Positions 27,432 to 60,636 are shown, counted from the first letter of the stretch. The stretch: DNA of 64,000 nucleotides from Pseudomonadota bacterium (GCA_040756035.1 JBFLZV010000002.1:16124-80123), one strand, 5' to 3'. Numbers and translations: made by a program. The notes: generated from the sequence alone by a model not told the origin.

Positions 27432-28886
<1,455 letters not shown>

Positions 28887-28893
28887 ATCAGTT

Positions 28894-28932
28894 GCGTAGA
28901 TTGGGGTGAATGAAATGAACCCCAACGAATAA
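28894..28932 (+). repeat. REP element copy 1 (GCGTAGATTGGGGTGA...GAACCCCAAC)
   Basis: Hairpin with a GTAG 5' motif, between gatA and gatB. Confidence 0.8.
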
Positions 28933-28975
28933 CGGAACCGTGTTACATATTTGCGTGAGACATTAGGAATTAGGT

Positions 28976-30415
28976 ATGGAATGGGAAACAGTCATCGGCT
29001 TGGAAATTCATGCCCAGCTTGCCACGAAAAGCAAAATCTTTTCCGGCGCGCCGACCGCTTATGGGGCCGAGCCGAACACGCAGGCGTGCGCGGTTGACCT
29101 GGGCTTGCCCGGTGTGCTGCCGGTGCTCAACGAAGAAGCCGTGCGCATGGCGGTGAAATTCGGCTTGGCGGTGCACGCCGCCATCGCGCCGTATTCCGTA
29201 TTCGCGCGCAAGAATTATTTCTATCCCGATTTGCCCAAGGGTTATCAAATCAGCCAATACGAATTGCCGGTGGTCGCCAAGGGCCGCATCGACATCGAAC
29301 TCGACGACGGCGCCGTCAAAACTATCGGCGTCACGCGCGCGCATTTGGAGGAAGACGCCGGCAAATCGCTGCACGAGGATTTTCACGGCATGAGCGGCAT
29401 CGACCTCAATCGCGCCGGCACGCCGCTGCTGGAAATCGTCTCCGAGCCGGACATGCGCTCCGCCAAGGAAGCGGTAGCCTATATGAAAAAAATCCATGCC
29501 CTGGTGCGCTACTTGGAAATCTGTGACGGCAATATGCAGGAAGGCTCGTTCCGCTGCGACGCCAACGTGTCGGTGCGCCCCAAGGGCCAGCAAAAATTCG
29601 GCACGCGCGCGGAGCTGAAAAACATCAACTCGTTCCGCTTCGTCGAGAAGGCTATCAATTACGAAGTCGAACGCCAGATCGAATTGCTGGAATCCGGCGG
29701 CACGGTGGTGCAGGAAACGCGCCTGTACGACGCCGACAAAGACGAAACGCGCCCCATGCGCTCCAAGGAAGAGGCCAACGATTACCGCTACTTCCCTGAT
29801 CCCGATCTGCTGCCGCTGGAGTTGAGCGCGGAATTCGTCGAGCAAGTGCGGCGCACGCTGCCGGAATTGCCCGATGAGAAGAAGCAGCGCTTCATGCGCG
29901 ACTATCAACTTTCACCTTACGAAGCCGGCGTGCTCACCGCCAGCCGCGAACTGGCCGACTACTACGAGGCCGTGGTGCGCGCCTCCAACGGCGCGGCCAA
30001 GCTGTCCGCCAACTGGGTGATGGGCGACTTGCTCGGCGCGCTCAACAAGGCCGGCCTGGAAATCGAAGCGAGTCCGCTCGACGCGAAAAAATTGGGCGGC
30101 CTGTTGCTGCGCATTCAAGACAACACCATCTCCGGCAAAATCGCCAAGCAAGTGTTCGAAGCCATGTGGAATGGCGAAGGCGAGGCCGACGCCATCATCG
30201 AGGCCAAGGGCTTGAAACAAGTCACCGACACCGGCGCGATCGAAAAGGCCATCGATGCCGTCATGGCGCAACACCCGCAGCAGTTACAGCAATACCGAGA
30301 TGGTCAGGACAAACTGTTCGGCTTCTTCGTCGGCCAAGTCATGAAGGCCACGCAAGGCAAAGCCAACCCGGCACAGTTGAACGCGCTGCTCAAGGAAAAA
30401 CTCGCACAGAAGTAA
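28976..30415 (+). CDS. gatB: Asp/Glu-tRNA amidotransferase subunit B
   Basis: 479 aa with the GatB/YqeY domain architecture. Confidence 0.95.
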
Positions 30416-30421
30416 AATATA

Positions 30422-30516
30422 TGTAGGTTGGGGTGACTCCGCACCTTGCTTGCCACGGTTGCGTGATGTACGGGCTTAGCAATTTGCAAGGTGCGGGGGA
30501 ACCCCAACAAAAATAA
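30422..30516 (+). repeat. REP element copy 2, expanded: a second palindrome (CCGCACCTTGC...GCAAGGTGCGG) is nested in the REP loop
   Basis: TGTAGGTTGGGGTGA...GGAACCCCAACAAAAATAA, between gatB and corA. Confidence 0.8.
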
Positions 30517-30549
30517 TCCGGTGACTTCGCCTTTGCACGAACACTACAC

Positions 30550-31617
30550 ATGGCCGAACTGCTGAAAGACTATCACCCGCCCGGCACCGCGCCCGGCACG
30601 TTGCATCCGGCGCGTGGAGAGGGCGAGCGGGTGCGCGTGCTGCTCACTCGCTACCGCGACGCCAAACCCGAGACGCAGGAATTTGCCGATGTCCGCGAAC
30701 TCGCCGCGGCTATGCGGGGCGCGGAATTAAGTTGGGTACACGTGATCGGCTTGGGCGACATCAAGGCGCTGGAGCGGCTCGGTGAACTTTTTGAATTGCA
30801 TCCGCTTGCGTTGGAAGACGTCACGCGTCTCGGCCAACGTCCTAAAGTGGAAACCTACGCGGATCAGTTGTTCGTTATTTTGCAACACATGGAATACGCG
30901 CAAGAGCAAACCAGATTCACCCAATTTGCGCTGTTTCTCAGAAAAAACTGCGTCATCACTTTCCAGCCGAGCAGGTCCGATCTGCTGGAACCGCTGCGCC
31001 GCCGTATGCCGAACGGCACGGGCGGCGCACCGCTGTTCAGCGCCGATTATCTCGCCTATTCCATCATCGATTTGATCATCGATTCCGCGTTTCCGGCGCT
31101 GGAAGCGTTCGGCAATCGCATGGAAGCATTGGAAGACGAAATTCTGCGCAATCCCAATCGCCAAGTCATGGCGCGCATACACGGCGTGCGTCGCCAACTG
31201 GTGCATCTGCGCCGCATACTGTGGCCGCAGCGCGACGTGATCGTGCGCCTGATGCGCAACGAGCAAGATCTGATCAGCCACGATGTGATCGTATACCTGC
31301 GCGACTCCTCCGATCACGCGGTGCAAGCCATGGACGTGGTGGAAAGCTACCGCGAAATGGCCGCAAGCCTGCTCGACGTGCACCTCTCCAACACCAACGT
31401 GCGCCTCACCGAAGTGATGCGCGTGCTCACCGTCATCGCCACACTGTTCACCCCGCCGATATTCGTCACCAGCATCTACGGCATGAACTTCGACCGCTCC
31501 CATCCATTAAACATGCCCGAACTGGGCTGGGAATACGGCTATCTCATGGTGTGGGGCATCATCATCTCCATCATCATCGGCATGCTCCTTTATTTCCGCC
31601 GCAAGCGGTGGATGTGA
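30550..31617 (+). CDS. corA: Magnesium/cobalt transporter CorA
   Basis: 355 aa. YGMNF (GMN) motif followed by two C-terminal transmembrane helices. Confidence 0.9.
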   Translation: MAELLKDYHPPGTAPGTLHPARGEGERVRVLLTRYRDAKPETQEFADVRELAAAMRGAELSWVHVIGLGDIKALERLGELFELHPLALEDVTRLGQRPKVETYADQLFVILQHMEYAQEQTRFTQFALFLRKNCVITFQPSRSDLLEPLRRRMPNGTGGAPLFSADYLAYSIIDLIIDSAFPALEAFGNRMEALEDEILRNPNRQVMARIHGVRRQLVHLRRILWPQRDVIVRLMRNEQDLISHDVIVYLRDSSDHAVQAMDVVESYREMAASLLDVHLSNTNVRLTEVMRVLTVIATLFTPPIFVTSIYGMNFDRSHPLNMPELGWEYGYLMVWGIIISIIIGMLLYFRRKRWM

Positions 31618-31825
31618 ATCCTTATCATATGAATGAATGCTAATATCCATGCTAACTCAGTGAGAATATAAAGCTACCGATCACGATTTGCTTTACCACT
31701 ATTGCTCTGCGGAGACATTTCTTGCTATTTGCGGAAGTAAGAGACTCCGCTTTAATGATCTTTTTTCGATGAATGATTTCTCGGAGTTGCATTGGGGCTA
31801 CCATGTTTGGGAAGAAGCCGCTAGC

Positions 31826-31863
31826 GCGTAGGTTGGGGTAAGCGAAGCGAACCCCAACAAAAA
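31826..31863 (+). repeat. REP element copy 3, 5' flank of the RAYT gene
   Basis: GCGTAGGTTGGGGTAAGCGAAGCGAACCCCAACAAAAA. Confidence 0.85.
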
Positions 31864-31909
31864 CGATTCAACGAGGCGAACAAATAAACAATCATCTGGA
31901 ATATCAGCG

Positions 31910-32440
31910 ATGCGATATCGACGCGCCGATATAGCCGGAGGAACGTATTTCTTTACGGTCAATCTCGCGGAGCGTAGCCGCACGCTATTGTTCGATTACG
32001 TTGACGTGTTGCGTGCGGTGATCCAAGAGGTCAAACGGCGGCATCCCTTTCACATTGACGCAATAGTGATATTGTCCGACCATTTACACGCTTTGTGGAC
32101 ATTGCCGGCGGATGATCGCGATTACCCTACCCGTTGGACGCTCATCAAAGCCGGTTTTTCCCGGCATATCGCACCCAATGAACAGCGCAATGCGAGCCGG
32201 TTATCCAAAGGCGATCGGGGCGTTTGGCAACGGCGTTATTGGGAGCATCTTATTCGGGATGAGCAAGACTACGCTCGGCACGTGGATTATATCCATTACA
32301 ATCCGGTGAAACACGGCCATGTGCAGCGCGCTTCGGATTGGCCGTATTCCAGCATTCACCAGCATATCGCGGCGGGATTAATCAATAAAGATTGGGGTGT
32401 TGAGGGGCTTGATGAAAGTGGTAAATTTGGCGAGCGGTGA
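31910..32440 (+). CDS. REP-associated tyrosine transposase (RAYT, TnpA_REP; IS200/IS605-like Y1 HuH enzyme)
   Basis: 176 aa. Strong match to E. coli RAYT/YafM (YRRADIAGGTYFFTVNL, HuH motif HLHALWTLP, QRRYWEHLIR, HVDYIHYNPVKHG, SDWPYSS). Flanked by inverted REP copies. Confidence 0.85.
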   Translation: MRYRRADIAGGTYFFTVNLAERSRTLLFDYVDVLRAVIQEVKRRHPFHIDAIVILSDHLHALWTLPADDRDYPTRWTLIKAGFSRHIAPNEQRNASRLSKGDRGVWQRRYWEHLIRDEQDYARHVDYIHYNPVKHGHVQRASDWPYSSIHQHIAAGLINKDWGVEGLDESGKFGER

Positions 32441-32449
32441 AGAGTCGAT

Positions 32450-32483
32450 GTTGGGGTTCGCGTTGCTCACCCCAACCTACGTG
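32450..32483 (-). repeat. REP element copy 4 (inverted), 3' flank of the RAYT gene. Overlaps the uup stop codon.
   Basis: The reverse complement reads CACGTAGGTTGGGGTGAGCAACGCGAACCCCAAC. Confidence 0.85.
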
Positions 32484-34363
32484 AGTGATTCTAATTCATC
32501 CCAGCGGGCATAGGCTTTGTGCAGTGCAGCGCTGAGGGTTTCCAGTTCTTGGGTGGCGGTTAGGAAGCCTTGTTGGTCGCGTTGGTAGAAGTCGGGTTGC
32601 GCGAGCGCGGTGGTGAGTTTTGCTTGTTGCGCTTCCAGTTTTTCGATGTGCGCGGGTAGATTTTCCAGTTCGCGTTGGTCTTTGTAGTTGAGTTTGCGCT
32701 TGGGGATGGATGGTGTTCGGGGTTCCGGCGCGGGTTTGGCGGGGGATGACGGAGTGGCCGGTTGCGCGGGCCGCTGGCGCAGCCAGTCTTCGTAGCCGCC
32801 GACGTATTCGTTGATTTTTCCTTCTCCTTCGAATACCAGCACGCTGGTGACGACGTTGTCGAGAAACGCGCGGTCGTGGCTCACCAACAACAGCGTGCCT
32901 TGGTAGGCGCTTAGCAGTTCTTCGAGCAGTTCCAGCGTTTCGATATCCAAGTCATTGGTGGGTTCGTCCATGACCAGCAGGTTGGCGGGTTGCGTGAACA
33001 GGCGCGCCAGCAGCAGGCGGTTGCACTCGCCGCCCGACAGGGATTTCACCGGCGAGCGCGCGCGTTCCGGAGCGAACAGGAAATCTTGTAAGTAACTCAT
33101 GAGATGCCGCGAGCGGCCGTTGATGGTGACGGTGTCGTTGCCGCCGGCGATGTTGTCGATCACCGAGCGTTCGGGGTCGAGATGCGCGCGCAGTTGATCG
33201 AAGTAGGCCACTTGTAATTTGGTGCCGTGGCGCACGCTGCCCGTTTGCGGCGCGATTTGGCCGAGCAGCAATTTGAGCAGCGTGGTTTTGCCCACGCCGT
33301 TCGGCCCGATTAATCCGATGCGGTCGCCGCGCAGGATGCGCAGCGAAAAATCCTTGATGAGCGGCGCATCATTGTACGACAGGCTGATGTTCTCGGCTTC
33401 GATTACCAGTTTGCCGGAGCTTACGCTGCTGTCGATGTCGAGGCGCACGTTGCCTAGTTGATTGCGGCGTTTGGCGCGCTCGGCGCGCAGTGCGTACAGG
33501 GCGCGCACGCGGCCTTCGTTGCGCGTGCGCCGCGCTTGGACGCCTTGGCGTATCCACACTTCCTCCTGCGCCAGTTTTTTATCGAACTTGGCGGCGTGCT
33601 CGGCTTCGATGGCGAGATTCTCTTGTTTCTTTTGCAGGTAACGCGCGTAATCGCCGGGCCAGGAGCTGAGTTGGCCGCGATCCAGTTCGACGATGCGCGT
33701 GGCGAGATGTTTCAGCAGCGTGCGGTCGTGGGTGATGAACAACAGGCCGCCGTTGAAGTTATTGAGCAGCATGTCTTCCAGCCACTGTATCGCTTCGATG
33801 TCGAGATGATTGGTGGGCTCGTCGAGCAACAGCAGATCGGGTTCGGCCACCAAGGCTTGTGCCAAGGCGACGCGGCGTTTCCAGCCGCCGGAGAGTTCGC
33901 TGACTAATTTGTCCGCCGGCAATCCGAGGCGGCTCAGCGTGGTTTCGATGCGCTGCTGGAAGCGCCAGCCGTCCTGCGCTTCCAGGCTGTGCTGCAATGC
34001 GGAGAGGCGTTGCAAATGAACGCCATCAGGATCATCGTGCAGTAGCAGGGCGGTATGGTGATACTCGGCCAGTTGCGCGCCCAGCGTGCCGAGGCCGTCG
34101 GCGACGGCGTCGAATACGGTGCGGGTTTCTTGCAAGGGTAAATCTTGCGCGAGATAAGCGATGCGCAGGCCGGCTTGACGCCGCACCACGCCGTCATCGG
34201 GAAGTATGGCGCCGCGCAGGATTTGCATGAGCGTGGATTTTCCCGCGCCGTTGCGGCCGATCAGGCACACGCGCTCTTTGACGTCGAGCGTGAAATCGGC
34301 GGCGTCGAGCAGGGCGTGATGACCGAAGGCGATGGAGACTTTTTCGAGGGTGATGAGGGGCAT
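32477..34363 (-). CDS. uup: ABC-F family ATPase Uup
   Basis: 628 aa. Two ABC cassettes (Walker A GRNGAGKST and GPNGVGKTT, LSGG signatures) plus a C-terminal coiled-coil/DNA-binding domain. Confidence 0.8.
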   Translation of the reverse strand: MPLITLEKVSIAFGHHALLDAADFTLDVKERVCLIGRNGAGKSTLMQILRGAILPDDGVVRRQAGLRIAYLAQDLPLQETRTVFDAVADGLGTLGAQLAEYHHTALLLHDDPDGVHLQRLSALQHSLEAQDGWRFQQRIETTLSRLGLPADKLVSELSGGWKRRVALAQALVAEPDLLLLDEPTNHLDIEAIQWLEDMLLNNFNGGLLFITHDRTLLKHLATRIVELDRGQLSSWPGDYARYLQKKQENLAIEAEHAAKFDKKLAQEEVWIRQGVQARRTRNEGRVRALYALRAERAKRRNQLGNVRLDIDSSVSSGKLVIEAENISLSYNDAPLIKDFSLRILRGDRIGLIGPNGVGKTTLLKLLLGQIAPQTGSVRHGTKLQVAYFDQLRAHLDPERSVIDNIAGGNDTVTINGRSRHLMSYLQDFLFAPERARSPVKSLSGGECNRLLLARLFTQPANLLVMDEPTNDLDIETLELLEELLSAYQGTLLLVSHDRAFLDNVVTSVLVFEGEGKINEYVGGYEDWLRQRPAQPATPSSPAKPAPEPRTPSIPKRKLNYKDQRELENLPAHIEKLEAQQAKLTTALAQPDFYQRDQQGFLTATQELETLSAALHKAYARWDELESLT

Positions 34364-34394
34364 TTTTATTAGAGAAGACGCACAATGATGTGTT

Positions 34395-34429
34395 GTTGGG
34401 GTTCGCTTCGCTCACCCCAACCTACGTGG
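34395..34429 (-). repeat. REP element copy 5 (inverted), between the pilR stop and the uup start
   Basis: The reverse complement reads CCACGTAGGTTGGGGTGAGCGAAGCGAACCCCAAC. Confidence 0.85.
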
Positions 34430-34433
34430 ATTT

Positions 34434-35765
34434 TTAGTAATCCAATCCCAATTTTTTCAGACGGTAGCGCAACGCGCGGAAGGTGATGCCGAGCAGTTTG
34501 GCGGCGGCGGTTTTGTTGTAGCGCGTTTTTTCCAGAGCCTTGATGATCGCTTCTTTTTCCAGCGTGTCGAGGTACGGTTCCAGCGGCAGTTTGCCGCCAT
34601 GCGCGTGTTGTTCGATGACGTGCTGCGGCAGGCGCAGATCGTCGGCGTCGATCACGCGGCCTTCGCACAGGGTCATGGCGCGCTCCAGAATATTTTCCAG
34701 TTCGCGCACATTGCCGGGAAATGGATGTTTCATCAGGGCGTCCATCGCGGCGGGCGTGAGTTCCGGCTTGGCGGTGTCGGCCTGCTCGGCGAGCCGCGTG
34801 AGAATGTGCTCGGCGAGGATGGGAATGTCTTGCGGGCGCTCGCGCAGGCTCGGCACGTGCAGTTCGATGACGTTGATGCGGTAAAACAAATCCTGGCGGA
34901 ATTCGCCTTGCTTGACGAGGCTGGCTAAATCCTTGTGCGTGGCGCTCAGGATGCGCACGTCGATGGGCACTTCCTTTTGCGCGCCGACCGGGCGCACCGC
35001 TTTTTCCTGAATGGCGCGCAGCAGTTTGACTTGCATGTGCAGCGGCAAATCGGCGACTTCGTCGAGAAACAGCGTGCCGCCCTCGGCCACTTGGAACAGT
35101 CCCGGTTTGTCCGCCACCGCGCCGGTGAAGCTGCCTTTTTTGTGTCCGAAAAATTCGCTTTCCATCAGATGTTCGGGAATGGCGCCGCAATTCACCGCGA
35201 TGAACGGGTGATCGGCGCGCGCCCCCTTTTCGTGAATCATGCGCGCCACCAGTTCCTTGCCGGTGCCGGACTCGCCGCTGATGTACACCGGCGCCTGGCT
35301 GCGCGCCAGCTTGGCGATGGTGGCGCGGGTGGCCTGCATGGCCGACGAATCGCCGAGCAGGGTGAGCGCGCCGCGCTGCGGCTGCTGATCCGGTTTTTCG
35401 GAAAGTTTCAGCGCCGTGTTGACCAGCGTGCGCAGCGCTTGCAGATCGACGGGCTTGGATACGAAATCGAACGCGCCGGCCTTGAGCGCGTGGATGGCCG
35501 ATTCCATGTTGCCGTGCGCGGTGATCACCGCGACCGGCAGATTAGGGTCGGTTTGTTGAATATGCTCGACCAGCCCAATGCCGTTGCCGTCCGGCAGGCG
35601 CATGTCGGTGAGGCACAAATCGAAATGCTGCTTGGACAACAGACTACGCGCCTGACCGAGTGTTTCCGCGGTGTGCGTTTGAATGTTCATGCGCCCAAGG
35701 GTGAGCTGCAAGAGCTCGCGGATGTCGGGCTCGTCATCGACGACTAAAGCGAGGTGCGGCGACAT
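34434..35765 (-). CDS. pilR: Sigma-54-dependent response regulator PilR
   Basis: Has receiver, AAA+ sigma-54 activation domain (GESGTGKE, GAFTGA-like ESEFFGH) and HTH. Very similar to P. aeruginosa PilR along its length. Start at MSPHLALVVDDEP. Confidence 0.85.
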   Translation of the reverse strand: MSPHLALVVDDEPDIRELLQLTLGRMNIQTHTAETLGQARSLLSKQHFDLCLTDMRLPDGNGIGLVEHIQQTDPNLPVAVITAHGNMESAIHALKAGAFDFVSKPVDLQALRTLVNTALKLSEKPDQQPQRGALTLLGDSSAMQATRATIAKLARSQAPVYISGESGTGKELVARMIHEKGARADHPFIAVNCGAIPEHLMESEFFGHKKGSFTGAVADKPGLFQVAEGGTLFLDEVADLPLHMQVKLLRAIQEKAVRPVGAQKEVPIDVRILSATHKDLASLVKQGEFRQDLFYRINVIELHVPSLRERPQDIPILAEHILTRLAEQADTAKPELTPAAMDALMKHPFPGNVRELENILERAMTLCEGRVIDADDLRLPQHVIEQHAHGGKLPLEPYLDTLEKEAIIKALEKTRYNKTAAAKLLGITFRALRYRLKKLGLDY

Positions 35766-35943
35766 GATAGTAATACCCTCTCTACCCGGATACGGCAACT
35801 ACAGACAAGCGGGCGAAAGACACAAGGAGTCATGCACAAAAGCCGCGCGCATGTCTGCTGCCGGGGGATATTTTTGAGTAATGCTGGAACGTCTTCAATA
35901 TGCGGACTATACAGCGTAAGGCTGAGTTTGAAAAGCGTGTCAA

Positions 35944-37578
35944 TCAGGCGACCTGGCGACGACGCGGGTCGGCGAAGGTGATGCGGAAGCAACTGCCGCC
36001 GGCGGGCATGGCGACGTAACTCAGCCGCGCTTGGTTGCATTCGCACAGTTCGCGCGCGATGTACAGGCCGAGTCCGGTGCCGCTCTGTTCGGTGGTGAAG
36101 AACGGCTCGAAGATGTGCTGTACCACGTCCGGCGCGATGCCGGGGCCGGTGTCGATCACGTCCAGGAACGGCGCGCGCGATTCCAGCAGCACGCCGTTAC
36201 GCAACGTGAGGCGCGGGCCGCCGTTCTGCCGCGCGTAGCGCAGACCGTTTTCGCACAGATTACATAAAATTTGCTGCAACTGACTGGGGTCCATGCGCAC
36301 CACGACGTCCGGCGCGCCGTGTTCCAAATCGATTTCGGCGCCGTCGATGTTTTGGCTGCGCGTGAAATCATCGACGAATTCCTCCAGCCACGGCTTTAAT
36401 TGAAAATCGGCCGGATGCGAGCGCTCGCGGCGGCTCAATTGCAGCATGTTCTCGACGATCTTGTTCATGCGCTGCGATTGTTCGCGAATGATTTGCGTGA
36501 GACGCGCCTCGCCGCCGCCGACCGATTCAGCGAGCAGTTGGCCGGCGTGGCTGATGGCCGCGAGCGGATTGCGTATCTCGTGCGCGATGCTGGCGGTGAG
36601 CCGCCCCAGCGAGGCGAGTTTGAGATGTTGCGCCTGCTGTGCGATGCTCGACGTGTCTTCCAGAAATATCAACGTGCCAGGTGTTTCGCCGCGGCCCAGG
36701 CGCGCGAAGCGCGGCAGGATGTCCGCTGCGTTGGTAAACGGGCGGAAGGCGCTGGGTTCGTAAAGCTGGTTTTCGGAGCGCCACGCCTTGAGCTGACGTG
36801 CCAAATCCGGCGACAGTCGTTCGAGCGCTTGCCGCTCTTGCGTATGCGCAATGCCGAGCAAGTGCCAGGCGGATTCGTTCATAAGGCGTATCTCATCTGC
36901 GCCGTCCAGCACGATGATGCCGGTTTGCATACGCTGGACGATGTAGTCGGTGAGCTGCGCCATGTGCGCGAGTTCCTCGCCGCGGCTTTGCGCGAGCGCC
37001 TCGCTTTCGCGCACGCGCTGCGCCAGGATGTGGGAGAGTATGGCGGCGCCGAAGAAGGTTGCGCCGAGCATGCCCGCCTGCGTGTAGCCGCTGACGTCGG
37101 AGAGGGTACGGAGGTGCGCGTAAAGTTGTTCGTTGAGAACCGCCAGCGTGGCGACGGCGGCGAGCAGTATGGCGGCGCGCAGATTAGTAAGAATGCTACC
37201 CGCCGCGATCGAGACCACCAACAACATGCCGAGGCCGCTGCTGATGCCGCCGCTGGCGTGCATCAGCAGCGTGATAAATACGATGTCGAATAATACTTGC
37301 GCGTAAAGCTGGATACCGAAGGCCGGCCAGCGCGCCAGCAGGGCGAGCGCGCAAGCGACGGCGAAGGCAAGGTAGCCGACGGTCAATTGTATGAACAGCG
37401 TAGGATTGTGCTCGCCCAATGGTTTGGGCAGACCCTCGCTGCTCAGCATTAAAATAAGAAACAGCGTGGCAACGCCTAAACGGTAAAGAGTAAGCAGGCC
37501 AAGCGGCCGCCAAGTTTGCGCGGGGACGGCGGTGTCGCCCGCGCGGGTTTTGGGGTGCAGATAAGAGAGTATGGTCAT
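35944..37578 (-). CDS. pilS: Sensor histidine kinase PilS
   Basis: Multi-TM N-terminus, HisKA (HEIRNPL) and HATPase_c (GTGLGLYIARELCE). Collinear with P. aeruginosa PilS. The start is either 37578 or 37605. Confidence 0.8.
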   Translation of the reverse strand: MTILSYLHPKTRAGDTAVPAQTWRPLGLLTLYRLGVATLFLILMLSSEGLPKPLGEHNPTLFIQLTVGYLAFAVACALALLARWPAFGIQLYAQVLFDIVFITLLMHASGGISSGLGMLLVVSIAAGSILTNLRAAILLAAVATLAVLNEQLYAHLRTLSDVSGYTQAGMLGATFFGAAILSHILAQRVRESEALAQSRGEELAHMAQLTDYIVQRMQTGIIVLDGADEIRLMNESAWHLLGIAHTQERQALERLSPDLARQLKAWRSENQLYEPSAFRPFTNAADILPRFARLGRGETPGTLIFLEDTSSIAQQAQHLKLASLGRLTASIAHEIRNPLAAISHAGQLLAESVGGGEARLTQIIREQSQRMNKIVENMLQLSRRERSHPADFQLKPWLEEFVDDFTRSQNIDGAEIDLEHGAPDVVVRMDPSQLQQILCNLCENGLRYARQNGGPRLTLRNGVLLESRAPFLDVIDTGPGIAPDVVQHIFEPFFTTEQSGTGLGLYIARELCECNQARLSYVAMPAGGSCFRITFADPRRRQVA

Positions 37579-42294: not shown

Positions 42295-42545
42295 GATTTA
42301 TTCCGGCCTGCTTCCGTTTAATATCGACGGAGCTATGCGAACATCGAGCATTGTCTCTTGGGGGTTGGGATGGGATCGCCCAACTCGCGCGCTGTATCAA
42401 TCCATAATTGAATAGCTTCTTGCACGTTAGCCAACGCTGCTTCCTGCGTGTCGCCATGCGCCCGGGTAGTTCCGGCGCTTCGGTGACGAAGGCTTGATCC
42501 TCATCACCTCAGTAGAGAATGATCTCGTATTTATACATCAACGAT

Positions 42546-58032: not shown

Positions 58033-60636
<2,604 letters not shown>

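Follow-up and report, generated by a model that had tools for sequence, protein, structure and literature searches.

REPtrons combine a gene for a tyrosine transposase that is associated with repetitive extragenic palindromes (REPs), abbreviated RAYT, with cognate, GTAG-tagged REP hairpins that bracket the gene in inverted orientation. The RAYT gene of a REPtron is usually single copy and mostly inherited vertically, and further cognate REPs typically lie outside the bracketing pair, with tens to hundreds per genome. Here, we analyze a candidate locus of this kind in a 64-kb stretch of DNA, called the window throughout, from a Pseudomonadota bacterium (GCA_040756035.1, JBFLZV010000002.1:16124-80123). 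According to Nunvar et al. 2010 (PMC2817692), a pair of inverted REPs flanks RAYT genes in every case, and the term REPtron was defined by Corneloup et al. 2021 (PMC8266576). In the Escherichia coli enzyme, TnpA_REP, the HUH motif consists of H59 and H61, the catalytic tyrosine is Y115, N119 and H123 are metal ligands, and a C-terminal extension supplies the metal ligand E161 and makes contact with GTAG (PMC3479197). In Coxiella burnetii Dugway, GTAGGTTGGGCTGAGCTTGCGAAGCCCAAC is the RAYT-flanking REP and is present at low copy number, in the tens (Nunvar et al. 2010, PMC2817692). In Marinomonas, REPs that are concentrated near tnpA_REP and not spread over the genome have been read as a sign that they arrived recently and then multiplied locally (Corneloup et al. 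2021, PMC8266576), and the literature states that there is no evidence of tnpA_REP mobility (PMC8266576).

The locus in the window is identified as an E. coli-like (group 2-like) REPtron, a reading to which we assign a probability of about 90%. A RAYT gene is bracketed by inverted GTAG-tagged cognate REPs, and more copies lie nearby. As a REPtron it is genuine yet ordinary: the gene for a domesticated nuclease of single-strand DNA is accompanied by small hairpin repeats. The identification is correct and the kind of system is already known, because the association of RAYT with REPs is family-wide and the Coxiella and Marinomonas systems are published precedents. Only the empty sites in relatives, a uup gene bounded by REPs, and the low synonymous divergence (dS) of the RAYT gene exceed the ordinary.

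The RAYT gene and its bracketing repeats

The gene at 31910-32440 (plus strand) encodes a 176-amino acid HUH Y1 nuclease. The NCBIfam equivalog model NF047646.1 ('REP-associated tyrosine transposase') matches the protein with 200.1 bits against a cut-off of 80, and 146 of 146 model positions are covered. The sole Protein Data Bank match is 4ER8, the E. coli TnpA_REP (E = 9.9e-43, residues 2-169), and the identity to the E. coli protein is 49% in an alignment of 23 homologues. The HUH motif is H58-L59-H60 and the catalytic tyrosine is Y127. H58, H60, Y127, N131, and H135 align with H59, H61, Y115, N119, and H123 of the E. coli enzyme. An earlier interpretation of this DNA, referred to here as the sequence-only reading, had raised the prospect that the HUH and tyrosine residues might be missing on careful alignment; they are present, and these five residues are invariant across the 23 homologues, E. 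coli included. The RAYT has an intact HUH/tyrosine active site. The homologue family is very large, with at least 8000 proteins at E ≤ 1e-10, mostly from short contigs. The traits of the locus that may indicate group 2 are the 49% match to E. coli TnpA_REP and an internal irregularity of the REPs like that of group 2 REPs.

The RAYT gene lies between REP3 (31828-31858, plus strand) and REP4 (32450-32480, minus strand), which form an inverted bracket 591 nucleotides apart with the GTAG ends facing outward. A 51-nucleotide leader (31859-31909, plus strand) separates REP3 from the RAYT start codon, and REP4 begins 9 nucleotides past the RAYT stop codon. The window contains one RAYT gene copy. Three extra REPs lie within 3 kb of it: REP1 (GTAGATTGGGGTGAATGAAATGAACCCCAAC, 28896-28926, plus strand), a solo, degenerate copy between gatA and gatB; REP2 (86 nucleotides, 30423-30508, plus strand), a copy with an enlarged tip between gatB and corA; and REP5 (34395-34425, minus strand), next to pilR. 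From gatA to pilR, every intergenic spacer thus carries this hairpin repeat once. The stem word GTTGGGGT is found 10 times in the window, where 1.08 occurrences would be expected, and none of 100 shuffles reached this count. Nine of the occurrences fall in the five REPs, and the tenth, at 59810, is inside a coding region. When the whole window was scanned for perfect hairpins with a GTAG tag, 9 were found compared to 3-14 in shuffles, and none besides the known REPs recurs.

This layout agrees with the sequence-only reading in its main parts. Its proposal of a RAYT at 31910-32440 bracketed by a direct REP3 and an inverted REP4 is supported by the family models, the 4ER8 match, the catalytic residues, and the same arrangement in relatives. 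All five hairpins that it named were found, at 28896-34425 and with the form GTAG(G/A)TTGGGGT…ACCCCAAC, the earlier ranges having taken in a few flanking bases. The 5' GTAG that it called conserved starts five of the five copies.

REP hairpin structure and association with RAYT

The REP consensus is GTAG-GTTGGGGT-GA-GC-GAA-GC-GA-ACCCCAAC, about 31 nucleotides long. It is built from the 5' GTAG, an 8-bp stem (GTTGGGGT/ACCCCAAC), an internal loop of tandem G-A/G-A with a conservation of at least 90%, a distal stem of 2 bp, and a 3-nucleotide loop. As single-stranded DNA, the short REPs fold with -6.1 to -9.4 kcal/mol (z-scores of -2.9 to -3.6). Of 27 distinct 31-nucleotide variants, which come from many genomes, 19 have GC and 8 have AU at the distal pair 15-21, and 17 have CG and 7 have UA at the distal pair 16-20. 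The covariation score of the distal stem was matched by none of 500 shuffles, and slid controls collapse. The distal pairs change by compensation, showing that the hairpin shape is selected and not the sequence alone. REP4 and REP5 are intact copies.

RAYT homologues that are 58-86% identical to the window protein were located in five unrelated contexts, and all have the same REP type, with a (+) copy or a doublet upstream and a (-) copy downstream. The gene is inside a type I restriction-modification operon in L127, adjoins a toxin-antitoxin pair in L129, adjoins dctM in L135, belongs to a Dyella genome in L100, and is syntenic with the window in L131. The inverted bracket seen in the window is also present at L127, L129, L131, and L135. 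In 80 metagenome loci with homologues that are 52-73% identical, GTAG hairpins lie on both sides of the gene in 50, on one side in 21, and on neither in 9. Flanking hairpins are thus found in 71 of the 80, and several of the 9 loci without them have truncated flanks. The REP stem class tracks RAYT protein similarity. The mean RAYT identity to the window protein is 65% for the GTTGGGGT class, 61% for the GTTGGGCT-type, 56.5% for GATGGGTT / GATGCGGT (GATG-type), and 55% for the others, the GGCGG and GGTGG types; among the metagenomic RAYTs, those with flanking GTTGGGCT-type hairpins share ~54-68% identity with the window protein.

The sequence-only reading had raised the possibility of hairpins unique to this locus. 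A pattern scan located the window-type REP in at least 120 stretches of species-representative genomes, and it is abundant in many genomes other than that of the window. The hosts among the matches listed include Dyella, Mycoavidus, Sedimenticola, Methylococcales, Hydrocarboniphaga, and others. Among these listed matches (120 stretches), there are 37 '+-' doublets with spacers mostly of 11-30 nucleotides, 7 '-+' doublets, and 97 singlets.

Several side observations concern the same REP class. The type I restriction-modification locus (L127:5629-13750) has a 69%-identical RAYT and REPs between the genes on the hsdM/specificity side and hsdR, and an REP doublet lies 4.4 kb upstream. Truncated RAYT fragments beside same-class REPs occur in two metagenome-assembled genomes (MAGs), one betaproteobacterial (L070:5377-5592, residues 1-72) and one of Methylococcales (L090:5738-5833, residues 1-32), and these appear to be decayed RAYT genes. 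A 24-nucleotide form, GTAGGTTGGGGT-NNNN-ACCCCAAC, is also found in gut MAGs of Melainabacteria/Gastranaerophilales (L024, L040, L054, L075, L094, L114, L115) and Muribaculaceae (L046, L118).

REP2 keeps the GTAG-GTTGGGGT-GA...GA-ACCCCAAC frame, and its usual 7-nucleotide tip is replaced by 60 nucleotides. Within the insert, arms at 30437-30449 and 30486-30498 pair into a stem of 13 bp that includes one T.G pair and a perfect core of 11 bp and carries a 36-nucleotide loop, and REP2 folds with -28.1 kcal/mol (z -5.9). The 11-bp perfect palindrome reported earlier is real. The accompanying idea of REP-within-REP growth is unsupported because the insert lacks GTAG and has no further copies, either elsewhere in the window or among 120 genome stretches with REPs, and a REP nested in REP2 was rejected. 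An Rfam scan of 28000-36000 at E ≤ 1 gave no family, so the insert is not a known RNA. REP2 is best seen as a one-off expansion of the distal stem and tip. Longer loops exist elsewhere in the same REP class, for example in the 41-42-nucleotide copies of L085, and the gatB-corA spacer of the relative L131 retains only a decayed 5' half, GTAG-TCG-GGTTAAGGTGAG. The hairpin GTTGGGATGGGATCGCCCAAC at 42364-42384, which is intergenic and downstream of glnB, had been put forward as a decayed REP copy. The hairpin exists, but it lacks a GTAG and does not fold better than expected by chance, as 20 of 200 shuffles do equally well (z -1.4). This candidate remnant was also rejected, and the hairpin is probably unrelated to REPs.

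The function of the locus can be proposed by analogy with E. coli TnpA_REP (PMC3479197, PMC8266576). The RAYT would bind the folded REP on single-stranded DNA, reading the GTAG tag base-specifically and recognizing the irregular stem. It would cleave nearby through a covalent 5'-phosphotyrosine at Y127, with the metal held by H58, H60, N131, and H135. It could also rejoin strands, and new REP copies would then be seeded over time, here mostly close to the gene. The E. coli rule of cleavage defined by GTAG and CT is not applicable to the five REPs, from which CT dinucleotides lie at no consistent distance.

A number of observations weigh against the identification of the locus as a REPtron. The protein scores 21.5 bits with the Pfam family Y1_Tnp (PF01797, E = 2.7e-4), just under the gathering threshold of 23. 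The 4ER8 alignments end at chain residue 157 and do not reach the E. coli C-terminal metal ligand E161; most members of the clade share a C-terminal G-E-R, in which E175 of the window protein is a candidate for the E161 counterpart. Several of the REPs are imperfect. REP1 has G5 changed to A, which places an A.C at the stem base, although its distal stem is compensated as AT/AT, and in REP3 an A replaces G13, the first G of the G-A loop. All of the REPs are within 5.5 kb around the RAYT open reading frame, and the other 58 kb of the window has none. No inverted REP doublets (REPINs) occur in the window; all five REPs are singlets, which are not the proposed mobile unit. Finally, short-read contigs pass through REP2 and REP3 unbroken, indicating that those variants are not high-copy.

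The corA-pilR junction and uup

The gene calls place gatA (27432-28886), gatB (28976-30415), and corA (30550-31617) on the plus strand, and uup (32477-34363), which encodes an ABC-F ATPase of 628 amino acids, and pilR (34434-35765), which encodes a PilR-type regulator, on the minus strand. The window is identical to part of contig JBMOPP010000002.1 of the MAG GCA_049322975.1, which is labelled 'Pseudomonadota bacterium'. The nearest relatives of the window are labelled Gammaproteobacteria, and their junctions were located through PilR orthologues of 78-85% identity. In L143 (PilR 80%), pilR and corA are convergent and 10 nucleotides apart, and the gatA-gatB spacer is 15 nucleotides without an REP. 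Because pilR adjoins corA in this relative, 31618-34433 of the window (2816 nucleotides) is inserted DNA. In L142 (PilR 81%), the spacer is 99 nucleotides long and holds two REPs of another class (GTAGCGTGCGCTGTGCGCACG) as an inverted doublet; L141 (PilR 85%) has one REP of the L142 class together with a small toxin-antitoxin-like gene pair. These three relatives have the site without this RAYT. In L144 (PilR 78%), the site is occupied by a 320-amino acid RAYT-like protein and two small genes, and corA is missing. A uup gene is near pilR in none of the four (L141, L142, L143, L144). The syntenic relative L131 has the order gatB-corA-[600 nucleotides of unrelated DNA with a 98-amino acid open reading frame]-REP-RAYT-REP-pilR, again with no uup. 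The spacers of REP1 and REP2 are likewise empty or otherwise occupied in relatives. These comparisons show a junction at which REPs and small cargo have landed repeatedly within the clade.

Other repeats and genes were noted at these sites. A second GTAG-tagged REP class, GTAGCGTGCGC-NGT-GCGCACG, occurs at the pilR 3' end as a doublet (L142:11333-11431) and as a singlet (L141:3852-3880), which means that the same intergenic site was colonized by different REP families across lineages; this class is absent from the window, where 3 weak matches compare with 0.85 expected. The RAYT-like Y1 protein of L144 (11629-12591) reaches 79.9 bits with NF047646 (cut-off 80), its gene is followed by a 37-nucleotide direct repeat, and DUF805 and DUF6122 genes lie beside pilR. 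In place of REP1, the gatA-gatB spacers of L141 (7411-7510) and L144 (14883-14979) carry a further kind of palindromic repeat (GTAGCGAGTGGC.../...GCCACTCGCTAC-like).

The age of the cassette was estimated by comparison with L131. L131 and its siblings are the closest RAYT relatives, with 86% amino acid identity. Between the window RAYT (31910-32437) and L131:1936-2463, dS is 0.40 and the proportion of synonymous differences (pS) is 0.31 at this 86% identity. The values for corA are dS 1.52, pS 0.65, and 62% amino acid identity, and those for the C-terminal part of pilR are dS 1.21, pS 0.60, and 86%. The RAYT dS is thus three- to four-fold below that of the flanking genes. The non-coding RAYT leader is 88% identical to its L131 counterpart (45 of 51 positions), while the gatB-corA spacer is barely alignable, and the G+C content of the RAYT gene is 52.5% compared to 59-61% for its neighbors. 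As a lead from one genome pair with saturated flank values, these data suggest that the common ancestor of the two cassettes is younger than that of the flanks, owing either to horizontal exchange or to a renewed insertion at this site.

Late arrival would also suit an autonomous IS200/IS605-type insertion sequence running from REP3 through RAYT to REP4 in place of a domesticated RAYT. The protein has Y1 transposase ancestry (PF01797, E = 2.7e-4) but passes the RAYT equivalog model while remaining below the Pfam threshold for IS200. Three relatives lack the cassette at the orthologous site, its G+C of 52.5% is below the 61% of the surroundings, and the RAYT dS (0.40 against 1.52 for corA and 1.21 for pilR) suggests later arrival or exchange; however, its ends are one hairpin used twice in inverted orientation, unlike the subterminal hairpins of IS200/IS605 elements, which differ between left and right and share one orientation. 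The end hairpin also occurs as solo copies, both nearby and, in other genomes, across the whole genome, the window has a single gene copy, and homologous cassettes occur in different contexts, one per locus fetched. We consider an insertion sequence scarcely credible here and retain the identification as a REPtron.

On their GTAG side, the bracketing REPs border lineage-specific DNA. Left of REP3, the 208-nucleotide stretch 31618-31825 is 41% G+C compared to 61% for the window. A DUF2971-family gene remnant (31664-31831, plus strand) preserves ~55 N-terminal codons of a ~286-amino acid protein. In an exhaustive representative search, the fragment matched residues ~10-60 of the 286 in P0361 with 71% identity (E = 1e-18). 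Its full-length relatives carry PF11185, and a Pfam search with the 55-amino acid fragment itself returned nothing. The DUF2971 frame ends in the TAG of the REP3 GTAG; this gene scrap is thus truncated at the REP boundary.

On the other side, uup is exactly between REP5 and REP4, which are direct repeats in the uup sense orientation, 94% identical over 35 nucleotides and different at two loop positions. REP5 is 31 nucleotides upstream of the uup start and 8 nucleotides downstream of the pilR stop, the GTAG of REP4 gives uup its TAG stop codon, and CAC precedes both REPs. In four assemblies, uup orthologues of 72-78% identity share another context, (dinB)-EamA-small open reading frame-uup-(276-amino acid open reading frame)-fbp-dnaX-ybaB-recR, and none of the four has REPs of the window type around uup. 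None of these uup neighbors is present in the window. DNA similarity of the orthologues to the window starts exactly at the ATG (34363) and stops near the stop codon; several orthologues end in ...LESL, and the window Uup ends in ...LESLT. The single L131 REP at this site has the REP4 loop variant and is placed as REP4 is relative to RAYT and as REP5 is relative to pilR. Compared to the relatives, the position of uup is derived, the gene having been relocated from a conserved other context to a slot bounded to the base by direct REPs. The simplest reading would be that a [REP-leader-uup] segment integrated into a resident REP, as by an REP x REP crossover of a circular intermediate. An exact-match metagenome scan for the uup leader, which would mark the donor context or an independent assembly, gave 0 matches.

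Five independent short-read (Logan) contigs from other samples (L002-L006) carry an identical RAYT, and all break off at the REP4 GTAG edge (32477-32479). In those samples, the REP4 31-mer consequently has more than one continuation, which could reflect additional copies, relatives present in the same sample, or polymorphism of the uup insertion. The five contigs leave the RAYT-uup join unconfirmed, and this raises the question of a chimeric join across short repeats during assembly of the MAG. We regard such an artefact as very unlikely. A second long contig (50-200 kb class) is on record in which the neighbors are mostly the same, and two wrong joins would be required for the precise placement of a single gene between RAYT and pilR. 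REP4 and REP5 differ at the two loop positions and, at 31-35 nucleotides, are shorter than the usual final assembly k-mers. The uup frame also stops at the TAG of REP4, one codon past the ...LESL end of the orthologues.

The means by which a genuine uup relocation occurred can be framed in two ways. RAYT may have been responsible. The REP-RAYT-REP unit would have entered, or been re-exchanged into, the corA-pilR junction after the lineages split, and REP-directed cleavage and joining would then have moved uup (REP5-uup-REP4, with CAC|GTAG junctions) from its EamA-uup-fbp-dnaX context. We consider this sequence of events unlikely; if true, uup capture would be natural evidence of RAYT and REPs relocating host genes, like an IS200/IS605 element with cargo. 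The other explanation is possible, and we hold it tentatively. RAYT would be uninvolved in the local rearrangements, the REPs would be static host hairpins such as 3'-end stabilizers of mRNA, and uup would have moved by RecA-type recombination between 31-35-nucleotide REPs, for example of a [REP-uup] circle into a resident REP. The 94% identity of the direct repeats REP4 and REP5 over 35 nucleotides fits this explanation, and L131, with the REP4 loop on the RAYT side and the REP5 flank on the pilR side of its REP, has the pattern of an REP x REP crossover. REP1, REP2, REP3, and REP5 each follow the 3' end of a gene closely and have its sense orientation, as mRNA 3'-end elements would, and the orientation of REP4 is ambiguous because it is between convergent genes. 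The sense orientation is what suggests mRNA 3'-end protection by the REPs behind gatA, gatB, corA, and pilR. However, static hairpins leave unexplained both the co-variation of REP type with RAYT over 80 loci and the clustering of REPs at RAYT. The REPs also lack a T-run and are followed by A-rich sequence, and a terminator/promoter scan found 6 terminator-like sites, none of which coincides with an REP, so that no REP is called an intrinsic terminator. This explanation touches the mechanism of the uup move only and is compatible with the REPtron identification.

The REPtron in the window thus has modest added value as a clean series of filled and empty sites. It also provides a base-precise case of a conserved housekeeping gene between direct REPs beside a RAYT. 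If the junctions are confirmed, the locus could be used to ask whether RAYTs or mere REP homology reshape gene order.

Comparison with described systems

IS200/IS605 elements, represented by the IS608 TnpA, share with the window locus the Y1 HUH fold, single-strand hairpin substrates, and a 4-nucleotide guide-like tag at the hairpin foot. In contrast to these elements, the window locus has ends that do not differ between left and right and lacks a tnpB, and its protein is below the Pfam threshold and well above the RAYT model cut-off. The REPIN-RAYT system of Pseudomonas fluorescens (Bertels and Rainey 2011; RAYT group 3) resembles the window in having a single RAYT flanked by repeats. Inverted doublets like those of P. 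fluorescens are formed by the window REP class elsewhere (the 37 '+-' pairs with 11-30-nucleotide spacers among the matches listed), but not in the window, and the window protein appears closer to the E. coli type. In the REPtrons Ma and Mb of Marinomonas sp. MWYL1 (PMC8266576), REPs are near tnpA_REP, like the copies seen in the window; the REP sequences and lengths differ, and the window side of this comparison covers 64 kb.

The E. coli K-12 REPtron (tnpA_REP, also known as yafM or rayT; y, z1, and z2 REPs arranged in bacterial interspersed mosaic elements (BIMEs); structure 4ER8; RAYT group 2) has, like the window, a Y1 HUH nuclease, and the two proteins are 49% identical. Both have the same HUH, tyrosine, asparagine, and histidine active-site residues, both have GTAG directly before an imperfect hairpin with an internal non-Watson-Crick element, and in both the RAYT gene is bracketed by inverted REPs. 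The window clade differs from E. coli by a 13-residue insertion at about residues 87-99. The REP stem sequence also differs, and the tandem G-A/G-A loop of the window compares with the A12A13/G26C27 mismatch of E. coli. The window REPs are singlets concentrated beside the gene, whereas E. coli has BIME arrays. The Coxiella burnetii Dugway REP GTAGGTTGGGCTGAGCTTGCGAAGCCCAAC (PMC2817692, Table 1) has the same architecture and is one compensated base pair from the window-class REP GTAGGTTGGGGTGAGCTTGCGAACCCCAAC, a likeness between different organisms at the level of the REP. The RAYT/REP locus is itself textbook, one more member of a described kind in an uncultured gammaproteobacterial lineage with an REP class near that of Coxiella.

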